From Verrucomicrobiota bacterium (GTDB lineage: Bacteria; Verrucomicrobiota; Verrucomicrobiia; Limisphaerales; AAA164-E04): a DNA stretch of 64,000 nt. The position numbers and the translations under genes were made by a program. This document shows positions 53,597 through 59,449 of the stretch, in pieces; the stretch's first letter is position 1, and each line of letters opens with the position of its first letter. The stretch spans positions 4,192,001 to 4,256,000 of the forward strand of contig CP170459.1 of NCBI GenBank assembly GCA_047947115.1, in the 5' to 3' direction. The notes beneath the pieces were generated by a model, which was not told the origin of the DNA, searched no databases, and saw only the letters and a program-made list of their open reading frames with translations.

Positions 53597-55048
53597 CTAA
53601 TAATCCTCCCCGTTCAGGCTATCCACCACGGATCCCAACCAAGAGGCCAAGTCATTCCTCAGTCTTTCGACAGGAAATCGGCCATCTGCTCGCACCGGGC
53701 GTGAAAGCAAATCATCGGTTTCGGCAGGGTCGCTGTGCAGATTGTAAAGCTCCCAAGTTACCTGACTCTGCTTATTTTCGATGCGATGCAACTTCCAATC
53801 CCCATCAATCCAGGCGGAATGCCCGGGAAATTGATCATTTGGGTAACGGGGATCTGGCAACAGGGCTGCATTTTGGCTCGAAACGTGAGGTTCCAAGTCC
53901 CCACCGTTTTCCTGGGCATCCAGCAACTCACTCATCCACTGGGCCGAAGGCGTCCCAATACCCGGGGCAACATAGTCCCAGAACCCCATGCCTCCCCTGC
54001 GCTGACGATTCTTGTGATTCAAATAAGGGACCAGGCTCACTCCATCCAAAACCGTTTCGTGAGGTACAGGGATATCCAACCAATCCAGCAAAGTGGGAAA
54101 AATATCGCTGGTCGTGGCACGAACTTGAATGGCAGTAGGTTGTTTGATTCGATCAGGCCATTCCAAAAACGCCGGAACCCGCAGGCCTCCTTCGTAAACC
54201 TTGCTCTTGTTTCCTCGATAACCAGCGGTGGAACCAACTTTTGGAAGGGCTCCATTGTCGCTGCAATACCAAAGAATGGTATTATCCCTCACGCCAAGGG
54301 CTTCCAACCTGTTCCGCAGGGTCCCGAAAGCACGGTCCATTCCGGTCACTTCGCCAAAGAAATGTTTCAAGGCGTCGGGCTGATCCTTGTATAAAGCCTG
54401 ATCCGCCTCGATGGCACGATGAGGCCCATGCGGAGAACCAAACCAGATCACGGCAAAAAAAGGCCTGTCCCCCTCGGTTTGATCCTGAATCCAGTCAACA
54501 GCCAGATTGACCGCCAATTCAGAGCTTTCACCATGATGTTGCACGGCTTTGCCCTGATGGCTGAGTATTGGATCATTATCGTAAAAATTGGGAGCCGAAA
54601 CCCAGTAATCAAAACCATTGGCACCAGGATTTGCCGGACTGCTTTGCCGCACCGACCCCAGATGCCATTTCCCAAAATGCGCGGTCGCATATCCATTCTC
54701 CCTCAACACCTCTGCAATGGTTGTCTCCTGCGGACGCATTGGGTATCCCCATTTGAAAACTCCCATTCGATTTGGATGCCGCCCCGTCATGACACTGGCT
54801 CGAGTCGGAGAACAAACCGGGGCAGCAGCGTAAAACTGGTCAAACCGTATACCACTCCTCGAAGCCTTGTCAAAATGAGGAGTCTTGATGAAAGGATGCC
54901 CGGTGTATCCCATGTCGCCATACCCCTGGTCATCAGCCATGACCAAAACTATGTTGGGACGATCACTGGCCGATAGAGTGAAACAACAAACACCCCCCAA
55001 TCCAAGCACCAGCGCCAACGGTAACAAAGTGGATTTCATAAATACCAT
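53597..55048 (-). CDS. Sulfatase (S1 family)
   Basis: PNIVLVMADDQG, CSPTRASVMTGR, GKWHLG, SDNG, YEGGLRVP. Confidence 0.93.
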   Translation of the reverse strand: MVFMKSTLLPLALVLGLGGVCCFTLSASDRPNIVLVMADDQGYGDMGYTGHPFIKTPHFDKASRSGIRFDQFYAAAPVCSPTRASVMTGRHPNRMGVFKWGYPMRPQETTIAEVLRENGYATAHFGKWHLGSVRQSSPANPGANGFDYWVSAPNFYDNDPILSHQGKAVQHHGESSELAVNLAVDWIQDQTEGDRPFFAVIWFGSPHGPHRAIEADQALYKDQPDALKHFFGEVTGMDRAFGTLRNRLEALGVRDNTILWYCSDNGALPKVGSTAGYRGNKSKVYEGGLRVPAFLEWPDRIKQPTAIQVRATTSDIFPTLLDWLDIPVPHETVLDGVSLVPYLNHKNRQRRGGMGFWDYVAPGIGTPSAQWMSELLDAQENGGDLEPHVSSQNAALLPDPRYPNDQFPGHSAWIDGDWKLHRIENKQSQVTWELYNLHSDPAETDDLLSRPVRADGRFPVERLRNDLASWLGSVVDSLNGEDY

Positions 55049-55256
55049 CCAACCTCACCCATGAAAGTTTGCAAGTGAAAACCAGAATCTCAATGAGATC
55101 TGATGACAAAACACAGCAAATCAATGATCCTGGACAATCCGGTCTTGGGCACAGGTGGCTTCTCCAAAAACTGTTCTACTTACCCGGTCCGGCGAAAGGG
55201 AACCGAATCATCCCAATCTGCATCCCAAACTAATCCGGTTCATCCTGTTCAAAAAA

Positions 55257-56054
55257 TCAATTAGGTCGAGGTGGCCAAACTGTATCCGGGTTCTTTGGCT
55301 CAGAGGTACGCACCTGCAACCACGGCACGTCATGAGGTCCCATGGGATTGTTCACAATCTCTTTTGACAAGGTGTCGGGATCCACCCATTTCTTGATTTC
55401 GGAATGTCCGTCCGCGAATGAAAAGCCACAGGCGCCATTATGGTAATTGGCAGGCATGTTGCCCCATTGGTGAACGCGATTGACGAAAGTCAGGTGATAG
55501 CCGTCATCAATCGCATCCGGATGCTCATCCAGGAACACATATTTGTTGGCCGGGTTGATAATCGACGACTGCTTGCGCCAGGTGTAAAAGTCCCGGTCGA
55601 TTTCGGCCGTATACCAACTATCACCATTGATGCACCCATTGATCGACATGCTCCGCACGCGGGGATAAGCGACGTTTCCAAATTTCACGGTGCTCTTGTC
55701 TGCGGGACATTTGTATATCTTCAGGGATTGATTGTAATCCCAGAGCATGCCGCGTGGAGCCATCAGAAGGTTGACATTGGTCGCATCCGTCGGAGTCTTG
55801 AGCCAGCCTTCCACCCACCCCTTTTGTCCTCCGGTTCCGTTTGGAACCAGTTTGTCATCGTTGTCACTCGGGTACATGTACCAGGCCAAACCAAGCTGCT
55901 TAAGGTTGTTCATGCAGGCGATGCCTTGTGCCTTGGTCTTGGCTTTGGAAAGCGCCGGAAGCAACATGCCTGCCAGAATGGCAATAATGGCAATCACCAC
56001 CAGCAGCTCAATCAGCGTAAATCCACGTCTTTCGGTTGGATGCATTGTTTTCAT
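55257..56054 (-). CDS. Prepilin-type N-terminal cleavage/methylation protein (H-X9-DG type)
   Basis: [55 protein letters not shown]. Confidence 0.93.
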
Positions 56055-58613: not shown

Positions 58614-58654
58614 GATGGTCTCGTTATTATGGATTTCTTATAAGATAAATTAAA

Positions 58655-59449
58655 TCAACGAATCGTATTGGGCTTCTTGAAATCCATGATCACCTGATTG
58701 GTGGCTTGCGATGGTTTCATGGCGCTGATGTGGGCATCCATGAACAGAATATTGGCCGCGCCATCCGGATGCTCACTTCCGTGTTTGTAACCGACATCAT
58801 AAGTTCCATTAGGTTGTGCTCCAATGAGGATCACCGCAGGATGATTGAGGTCATATGAAATATCCGATACCAGGTGTGTATTGGCCGGATTCGGAACCGA
58901 AGAAAGTTTGGCGGTGTTGGATGACGGGAAATCTCCAGAGTTATTGGGGAAATTGGACGAAGTATGCTGATTCATTCCGTAACTGATCTTCCACGGATTC
59001 CCCTGCCCGTTGTAATGTTTGAATCCACGCCAATGGTTTTCCCGCATTCGAATCGGGCAAATGGAAACGCCATTGGTGAAATTCATTCCCTCCTGCCCTG
59101 CATCAAACTTTTGACGTCCATAATATGGAACCAGAAGCGCCTCAAAATTATTGATGTTGGCATTGTGAATAAACGTGTTTTCACCATGCCCCCAGGCGTA
59201 GGGCAGCTTATCATCATTGTCATCCGCATACATCACCGTGGCAATCCCCATCTGTTTGAGATTGCTGATGCACTTGGTCGCATAAGCTTTTTGCTTAGCC
59301 TTGCTCAGCGCCGGCAACAGCATTCCGGCAAGAATGGCAATAATGGCGATCACCACCAGAAGTTCAATAAGGGTGAAACCCCTTTTCTGCCGAGGTTGCC
59401 ATGTATACAACGGTACAGAACCCGCCTGACTGTCATGACAGTTTTTCAT
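58655..59449 (-). CDS. Prepilin-type N-terminal cleavage/methylation protein (H-X9-DG variant)
   Basis: [52 protein letters not shown]. Confidence 0.92.

Follow-up and report, generated by a model that had tools for sequence, protein, structure and literature searches.

Which genes of this verrucomicrobial pilin cassette belong together, and what might they do? The cassette lies in the window analysed here, the 64-kb stretch CP170459.1:4192001-4256000 of a 6.08-Mb single-contig genome, and consists of four co-oriented minus-strand open reading frames (ORFs) encoding, in gene order, a prepilin (pilin A), a secreted 842-aa protein, a second prepilin (pilin B) and a sulfatase; the ORF listing gives intergenic gaps of 41, 30 and 208 nt. 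The initial annotation, which had this layout and the first two gaps right (about 40 and 30 nt), took the four genes for a possible polysaccharide utilisation locus in which interchangeable pilin heads and a surface glycan-binding protein plug into a shared machine and play a role like that of SusCD. Comparison with relatives narrows the unit to two genes: pilin A and the 842-aa protein appear to be co-inherited as a matched pair, which is well supported, and pilin B and the sulfatase, judged by their orthologues, are local passengers and not conserved partners. Elsewhere in the genome a sister pilin pair follows the cobalamin riboswitch, a place that across the order is taken either by such a pair or by a TonB receptor, and it is this alternation that suggests what the pairs may be for.

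Inheritance of the pair and of its neighbours

Pilin A is encoded at 58655..59449 and the 842-aa protein at 56085..58613, both on the minus strand (window positions). Among 300 other genomes of the order, an orthologue of the 842-aa protein is present in 50 (E<=1e-50) and the body of pilin A in 50 (E<=1e-20), 35 genomes having both. The two orthologues lie <=12 kb apart on one contig in 20 of these 35, the 20 spanning 12 families; 19 of the 20 linked pairs are co-oriented, the pilin gene comes first in 13 and second in 7, and the remaining 15 genomes have the orthologues on separate contigs. Among 29 loci outside this genome, a pilin stands within 1.5 kb of the 842-aa orthologue at 11, and at 9 of these it matches pilin A best out of the 72 core pilin paralogues of the genome. 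Some results count against a strict pairing: several mid-contig loci of pilin A or the 842-aa protein are truly unlinked; 13 of 45 genomes with the 842-aa protein lack pilin A, and 7 of 39 with pilin A lack the 842-aa protein (E<=1e-100/1e-40), so the pairing is not obligate; and pilin B co-occurs with the 842-aa protein in 31 of the 45 genomes of the E<=1e-100 set, which means that kinship confounds bare co-occurrence. Because pilin B gives a similar overlap, co-occurrence statistics alone were dropped as evidence. A distance correlation across the 20 pilin–partner pairs (rho 0.28, with no species-tree control) was not counted as co-evolution.

The other two genes of the cassette serve as controls. 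Pilin B (55257..56054, minus strand; 265 aa) is a DUF1559/H-X9-DG prepilin and a member of the largest paralogue group of the genome; its orthologues occur in 58 of the 300 genomes, near an 842-aa orthologue in only 1 of 31 shared genomes, and its own loci (n=20) have no conserved neighbour, the protein itself being kept at ~70% identity. The sulfatase (53597..55048, minus strand; 483 aa) is of the formylglycine type (S1), with both the C/S-x-P-x-R motif, here CSPTR, and a PF00884 match of 195 bits. Its co-occurrence with the 842-aa protein is that of chance (5 genomes against 5.4 expected, with 5 candidates scored per genome), the two share a contig in 0 of 5, and in the two genomes of the same genus, too, neither the sulfatase nor the pilin B orthologues are linked to the pair. 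The claim of a four-gene polysaccharide locus is not supported by these controls: a single locus for the use of sulfated polysaccharides, made up of the whole cassette and equipped with two pilin heads that can stand in for each other, is considered very improbable, although the short gaps, the failure to find a minus-strand terminator-like site, a different sulfatase between the 842-aa orthologue and pilin A in genome G160, and a slight adjacency of sulfatases to pilins speak for it. The last point had been predicted and holds marginally, since sulfatases, of which the genome has 82 family members, adjoin 5 of the 72 pilins (1.5-1.8 expected, p 0.014-0.019); the effect is gone at +-2 genes. 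The 208-nt spacer between pilin B and the sulfatase also tells against the four-gene reading, as it is strain-variable: a 118-nt stretch (55098-55215) is missing in contigs from 4 of 4 estuary RNA runs. Contigs from these runs cover 51500-59348, and one runs from the sulfatase to pilin A; they prove neither transcription nor an operon, because cover reaches thiG, the contigs are 19-39 kb long and DNA is possibly present.

The 842-aa protein ends in a C-terminal 'FYR' domain (about residues 775-842; 56088..56291, minus strand), for which a profile hidden Markov model (HMM) matches 127 proteins of the genome and 0 reversed decoys; genome-wide counts rest on 4,537 genes called in this analysis. 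As the initial annotation expected, pilins are enriched beside genes with this tail: where 2.1-2.4 of the 72 pilins would be expected to have a co-oriented FYR gene as immediate neighbour, 11 do (p 3e-4), and with four more divergent pilins the count is 13 of 76 against 2.2. No other paralogue family is convincingly enriched within 2 genes of pilins; the strongest candidate, an AAA-type family identified by eye, stands at 4 of 7 with an uncorrected p of 5e-4. It might be argued that the two envelope families, both expanded, cluster by accident and that nothing but inheritance has preserved the adjacency; the 63 of 76 pilins with no co-oriented FYR neighbour would fit this and also weigh against the import reading set out below, as would the inflation of co-occurrence by kinship. 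In 12 families, however, pilin and partner have stayed together despite changed gene order and the insertion of other genes, and other pairs show the same, so that this explanation is already largely refuted and retains the slightest probability of those considered.

The extra neighbours that recur beside the pair are other FYR proteins: a GH127/GH76-like protein in 6 of 40 loci and CotH/LTD proteins in 4 of 40. The GH127/GH76-like FYR protein is ~1100 aa long and stands by pilin A or an 842-aa orthologue at L065:4142-7531, L084:5616-8909 and four other loci; it has no Pfam match, and Atlas leads with a family share of 12-31% make its naming a lead only. It is absent from the genome studied here, a PDB sequence search with it returned nothing significant, and no glycoside hydrolase (GH) conserved in the cassette itself was found.

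Predicted structures of the pilin and its partner

The initial annotation noted two prepilins with an identical N-terminus and divergent bodies, and this is what is found: a 29-residue N-terminal stretch is identical in pilins A and B, and the bodies align weakly (27.5% over 80 aa, E 1.5). The same N-terminal 25-mer is present in 49 of the 72 paralogues and is therefore a mark of the family, not of the cassette; the idea of interchangeable heads stands in so far as the N-terminus is common to the family, and is wrong in the sense that head subfamilies are matched to particular partners. Both pilins have a class III signal peptide, G|F-x-x-x-E5 (F1 of pilin A at 59377), followed by a hydrophobic helix, and score above the cut-offs of PF07963 (40.7 and 35.2 bits for A and B), TIGR02532 and PF07596 (31.5 and 26.0 bits, gathering score 23.3). 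Pilin B has the literal H-X9-DG motif and scores 13.5 with TIGR04294 against a cut-off of 19; pilin A, a DUF1559/H-X9-DG-type prepilin of 264 aa, has an H-X10-DA variant and no match to that model.

An AlphaFold2 model of pilin A (113 sequences, pLDDT 90.8) consists of a helix at residues 3-53 and strands at 167-220, that is, a long alpha-1 helix packed against an antiparallel sheet at the C-terminal end; a loop-rich insert, ~110 residues long, holds residues that are invariant in the subfamily. Its best structure match (VIA) is PilA4 6xxd (Z 5.7, rmsd 3.6, 117 residues aligned), EpsG (Z 4.8) and PulG (Z 4.4) are other good fold matches, and the top 25 rows are all pilins, the Z values being low; Foldseek found nothing at E<=0.001. 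The model thus predicts that pilin A carries a type IV pilin fold.

The partner has a signal peptide by inspection, and its AlphaFold2 model (100 sequences, pLDDT 90.6) shows four jelly rolls around a central immunoglobulin-like (Ig-like) domain and a six-stranded tail. Structure matches (VIA) place domains 1+2 (residues 25-338; 57600..58541, minus strand) with the carbohydrate-binding modules (CBMs) CBM61 2xom (Z 15.3), the porphyran CBM 8xmz (Z 14.9, rmsd 2.2, 129 aligned) and CBM16 2zew (Z 14.5); domains 3+4 (residues 446-764; 56322..57278, minus strand) match Pfam HpiC1-like, DUF642 and GH101_dom-5, and residues 603-763 have a beta-jelly-roll that aligns with CBM4-2 4bj0 (Z 16.3, rmsd 1.9, 138 aligned). 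Homologues of the protein number 251; in the family alignment domain 1 has a conserved WPHYG loop and a Cys-Cys pair, domains 3+4 have conserved GVGY-type loops and Cys-Cys pairs, and there are conserved aromatic residues in the jelly rolls. The four jelly rolls are accordingly predicted from the model to be sugar-binding domains of CBM4/16/61-like type, in line with the lectin-like nature assigned initially. The galactose-binding-like jelly roll is common to this protein and to CBM4/16/22/61, DUF642 and the HpiC1 Stig cyclases (Z 12.8-16.3); unlike these, the 842-aa protein is without a catalytic domain, has WPHYG/GVGY loops and Cys-Cys pairs of its own, and shares 13-19% identity with them. 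Whole-model Foldseek matches of the protein were multi-domain misalignments and were discarded.

The FYR domain is likely a sorting or anchoring signal, and at the B12 loci described below one passenger domain occurs either with a FYR tail or with PEP-CTERM. Considered as a possible C-terminal domain of the type IX secretion system, the tail of the 842-aa protein has no family match in library scans, and its profile has weak matches to glucanase/chitosanase modules and FN3 domains and nothing stronger. Other pilin and tail genes are found nearby. A third pilin of the window (42932-43813, minus strand) is followed by the gene for a lipoprotein of 129 aa and by that for an FYR-tail protein of 1365 aa with Ig content (38362-43813 in all), and small lipoproteins of that kind follow 3 pilins genome-wide. 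Two further secreted FYR-tail proteins are encoded at 33798-36290 and 59803-62901 on the plus strand, the latter divergent from pilin A. An imperfect LacI-like palindrome occurs twice upstream of pilin A (~59575-59595 and ~59655-59675) and was rejected as an operator, since none of the 28 regions upstream of orthologous pilins has it; a similar one lies upstream of pilin g2115. No upstream k-mer shared among pilin genes or among tail genes was prominent. The window also holds a tRNA (24781-24853) and transposase-like ORFs recognised by eye at 129-1484, 25304-26569 and 62991-64000, one family of which has 9 copies in the genome.

Sister pairs and the cobalamin riboswitch

Matching of pilin to partner is, by the same kind of sequence comparison, general and not peculiar to pilin A. 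A second pair (contig 3284418-3288437) consists of pilin g2477 and a protein of five choice-of-anchor M domains with conserved His motifs; 14 of 29 loci in other genomes have a pilin <=1.5 kb away, and 13 of these 14 match g2477 best among the 72 paralogues. A third pair tested for matching has few homologues and is repeated in 1 distant genome. The closest paralogue of g2477, g311, precedes a YtkA-like lipoprotein operon (contig 414119-423048); the g2477 pair and the g311 operon may be metal-capture modules. Elsewhere, at contig 2741206-2742770, a pilin gene overlaps with one for an FYR protein of 279 aa that is rich in His and Met; this protein has no family match and is possibly metal-binding.

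The most informative sister pair is that behind the sole RF00174 (cobalamin riboswitch) match of the genome (contig 1642946-1643111, 82.6 bits), which lies ~200 nt upstream of a FYR gene that in turn overlaps a pilin gene (contig 1640251-1643111). RF00174 is present in 140 of 151 genomes searched. At the 30 top-scoring loci, examined with 1.5-kb flanks, the riboswitch stands before a homologue of this FYR protein in 11 (this genome included), a TonB receptor in 2, a class I ribonucleotide reductase in 13, other genes in 2 and unclassified surface proteins in 2; class I ribonucleotide reductases are expected targets of cobalamin control. A further 60 loci, one per genome, were hand-picked below rank 30 of the list for downstream contig room; they include kin and are not independent samples. 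A homologue of the B12 surface protein, in its FYR or its PEP-CTERM form, is present at 46 of the 60 (36 families), 43 of them with a pilin, and a TonB receptor at 11 (7 families); no locus has both. The remaining three have a tail protein with the cognate pilin, a class I ribonucleotide reductase, and a locus cut short. Across the 60 loci 43 pilins match the B12 pilin of this genome best, 36 strongly and 7 weakly, and the same pilin is kept with the PEP-CTERM and the FYR form of the passenger. A second type of riboswitch operon (L252:490-5097, L193 and L196) encodes, besides a divergent pilin, proteins with PEP-CTERM and with FYR that belong to a different unclassified family.

The alternation extends to whole genomes. 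In 12 of 12 genomes with a riboswitch-linked TonB receptor, neither the B12 pilin nor the weakly BtuH-like partner domain was found with these queries. Conversely, scores with TIGR01779 in the 46 genomes with the surface protein do not exceed 168 bits, whereas the BtuB-like clade scores 224-302, and orthologues of the second riboswitch-linked receptor clade were not found in them. A profile of the first domain of the B12 FYR protein matches 8BLW_B (E 8e-6) and 7BIZ_A (E 0.005), which are BtuG1 and BtuH2, both described as B12-binding (PMC10404256, PMC8941943). A PDB sequence search with the single B12 partner gave nothing significant, and an Atlas search with the B12 domain gave unnamed clusters only. 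The genome has MetH; profile searches detected neither CobS nor BtuF, and BtuC did not exceed its cut-off.

Proposed capture and import, and the competing explanations

Profile searches of the 64-kb window gave no match to a secretin, a T2SSE/PilB ATPase or a TonB receptor (PF00593), so that the initial annotation was correct both in noting their local absence and in placing a shared machine of type II secretion system (T2SS) or type IV pilus (T4P) kind elsewhere. Profile searches of the genome give 10 secretin matches at ~8 loci, all outside the window, 10 T2SSE matches above cut-off (2 PilT included) and one gene for an A24 prepilin peptidase; there are about five T2SS-like clusters and one T4P cluster with PilB, PilT and PilC. 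Prepilin peptidase, ATPases, platform and secretin of a type IV (pseudo)pilin machine are thus all present in the genome, which supports a filament machine that is shared and encoded away from the cassette. Between two of the T2SS-like clusters lies a gene for a DUF6580 membrane protein (contig 5068102-5068722), presumably a candidate inner-membrane cobalamin carrier. TonB-barrel matches number 5, in ~4 genes, and SusD (PF07980) was not found in the genome (95.8% complete).

At the riboswitch, pilin and surface binder stand where BtuB stands, and import is therefore the simplest reading of the pairs. Pilin A and the 842-aa protein are accordingly proposed, with about an even chance of this being right, to form a nutrient-specific capture-and-import module that works through the shared secretin, probably for a glycan; the B12 sister pair lends the SusCD-like import role of the initial annotation strong if indirect support. 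A glycan is the likely ligand because of the CBM-type folds of the jelly rolls, and the GH127/GH76-like FYR protein beside the pair in 6 of 40 loci points the same way; Pedosphaeraceae reportedly take up laminarin into the periplasm (PMC13174399). Beyond gene linkage and predicted fold, we infer each step. After cleavage of PilD type, pilin A would enter the (pseudo)pilus as a minor or tip subunit via its N-terminal helix, which is invariant across ~72 paralogues; with that helix any head could fit into a single common filament, leaving head and partner to set specificity. The 842-aa protein would be exported, displayed on the surface through its FYR domain, and bind the ligand there; the conserved loops of the pilin head might then recognise the same ligand or the loaded partner, and retraction of the filament would power passage of the ligand through the secretin.

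A number of results weigh against import of a glycan by this route. No CAZyme family (carbohydrate-active enzymes) was found enriched near pilins genome-wide, contrary to the glycoside hydrolase enrichment predicted initially, and no conserved operator was found at pilin A orthologues. Non-lectins share the jelly-roll fold too: the HpiC1 cyclase matches at Z 14.4, and there are matches to MAM and reelin domains. At the B12 loci, seven of the 'cognate' pilins are weak best matches (33-42 bits), and the BtuH match is weak, the BtuG1 and BtuH2 profile matches each consisting of two short motif stretches. Generic TonB receptors are present in ~1/3 of the 46 surface-protein genomes, and one in the genome studied here is tail-to-tail with metH, so that B12 might also enter by a TonB route. 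FYR genes flank 3 of the 8 secretin loci (p 0.007), an arrangement that would suit export just as well.

The last two points make an export adaptor the main rival of import. Pilin A would then act as a cargo-specific secretion adaptor, recognising the 842-aa protein in the periplasm once it has folded and pushing it out through a T2SS secretin. Outside, the protein would bind glycan or surfaces, import being left to other transporters such as the remaining generic TonB receptors; the matched pairing, the number of T2SS-like clusters and the presence of EpsG and PulG among the best pilin fold matches would all suit it. It is nevertheless considered rather unlikely, since it leaves unexplained the mutual exclusion of pilin pair and TonB receptor at the level of both locus and genome. 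Nor does it sit easily with a pilin that stays the same when its passenger changes from a PEP-CTERM to a FYR form, with pilin A occurring where its cargo does not, with a pilin B conserved in sequence without a conserved partner, or with 127 tail proteins against 13 adjacent pilins.

An adhesion device without any part in transport, in which pilin A would decorate a type IV pilus outside the cell while the lectin served as a surface adhesin for particles or algae, is quite improbable. The CBM folds and the T4P cluster would allow it, and there is a precedent in the Akkermansiaceae MUL2 locus, where verrucomicrobial pilus genes are tied to glycan use (PMC13174399); adhesion, however, gives no reason for the B12-riboswitch control or the TonB alternation of the sister pair. 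MUL2 itself differs from the cassette in being one conserved four-gene machine locus, with a PilM-like and an archaeal-pilin-like protein, that is read as attachment; its pilin is not of DUF1559 type and there are no matched cargo pairs (PMC13174399).

Among systems for import, the pairs most resemble BtuB-BtuG-BtuH and SusCD with its surface glycan-binding proteins in Bacteroides, in that a surface binder stands beside a specificity component and, in the sister pair, in riboswitch control and a weakly BtuH-like domain. In contrast to these, the cassette has no TonB barrel and no SusD, FYR/PEP-CTERM tails take the place of lipoprotein anchors, and a pilin takes that of the transporter; an adjacent SusC TonB transporter with SusD and conserved co-localised CAZymes or sulfatases, as in a SusCD-type polysaccharide utilisation locus, are not found. 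The archaeal bindosome and the type IV filaments of DNA uptake (competence) are likewise filament machines serving uptake, in which retraction can pull bound cargo (PMC6711533); here, by comparison, the cell is a diderm, and its heads, dozens of them and of true pilin fold, are each matched to a surface protein of their own. The nearest known counterparts of the prepilins themselves are the DUF1559/SBP_bac_10 (PF07596) and H-X9-DG (TIGR04294) prepilin-like proteins of Planctomycetota and Verrucomicrobiota, with which they share N_methyl plus DUF1559 and membership of a large dispersed paralogue family. Tuwongella has 91 proteins with both domains, 25 of them detected as proteins and the genes often flanked by signal-peptide genes; the parts of that paper seen (PMC8567305) neither assign these proteins a function nor connect them with partners or with uptake, in contrast to the cassette pair with its matched inheritance. 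Pilins are not mentioned in PMC11685898, and no description of matched pilin–partner pairs or TonB alternation was found in the literature covered, which largely leaves out subscription papers. The expansion of the family was already known, as was uptake by type IV filaments; what appears to be new here is that subfamily and partner are inherited in matched form and that such pairs alternate with TonB receptors.

More broadly, and tentatively, the DUF1559/H-X9-DG pilins of PVC (Planctomycetota, Verrucomicrobiota, Chlamydiota) bacteria may be the specificity layer of a TonB-independent import across the outer membrane, divided by nutrient class (B12, metals, glycans), often with a matched FYR/PEP-CTERM binder, with a shared secretin and filament retraction, that replaces receptors of BtuB/SusC type and of which the present pair would be the glycan version; this wider proposal is given somewhat less than an even chance. 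PVC bacteria rank among the main degraders of glycans in sea and soil, and a genome with 82 sulfatase-family genes, ~4 TonB receptor genes and no SusD detected bears on how their substrates cross the outer membrane; DUF1559 pilins number from tens to ~100 per genome, and the matched pairs tie their role to that question. For the B12 pair both ligand and regulator are known and there is a single pilin gene, which makes it a clean test case; if the proposal is true, partner genes would reveal the ligand of each pilin subfamily.

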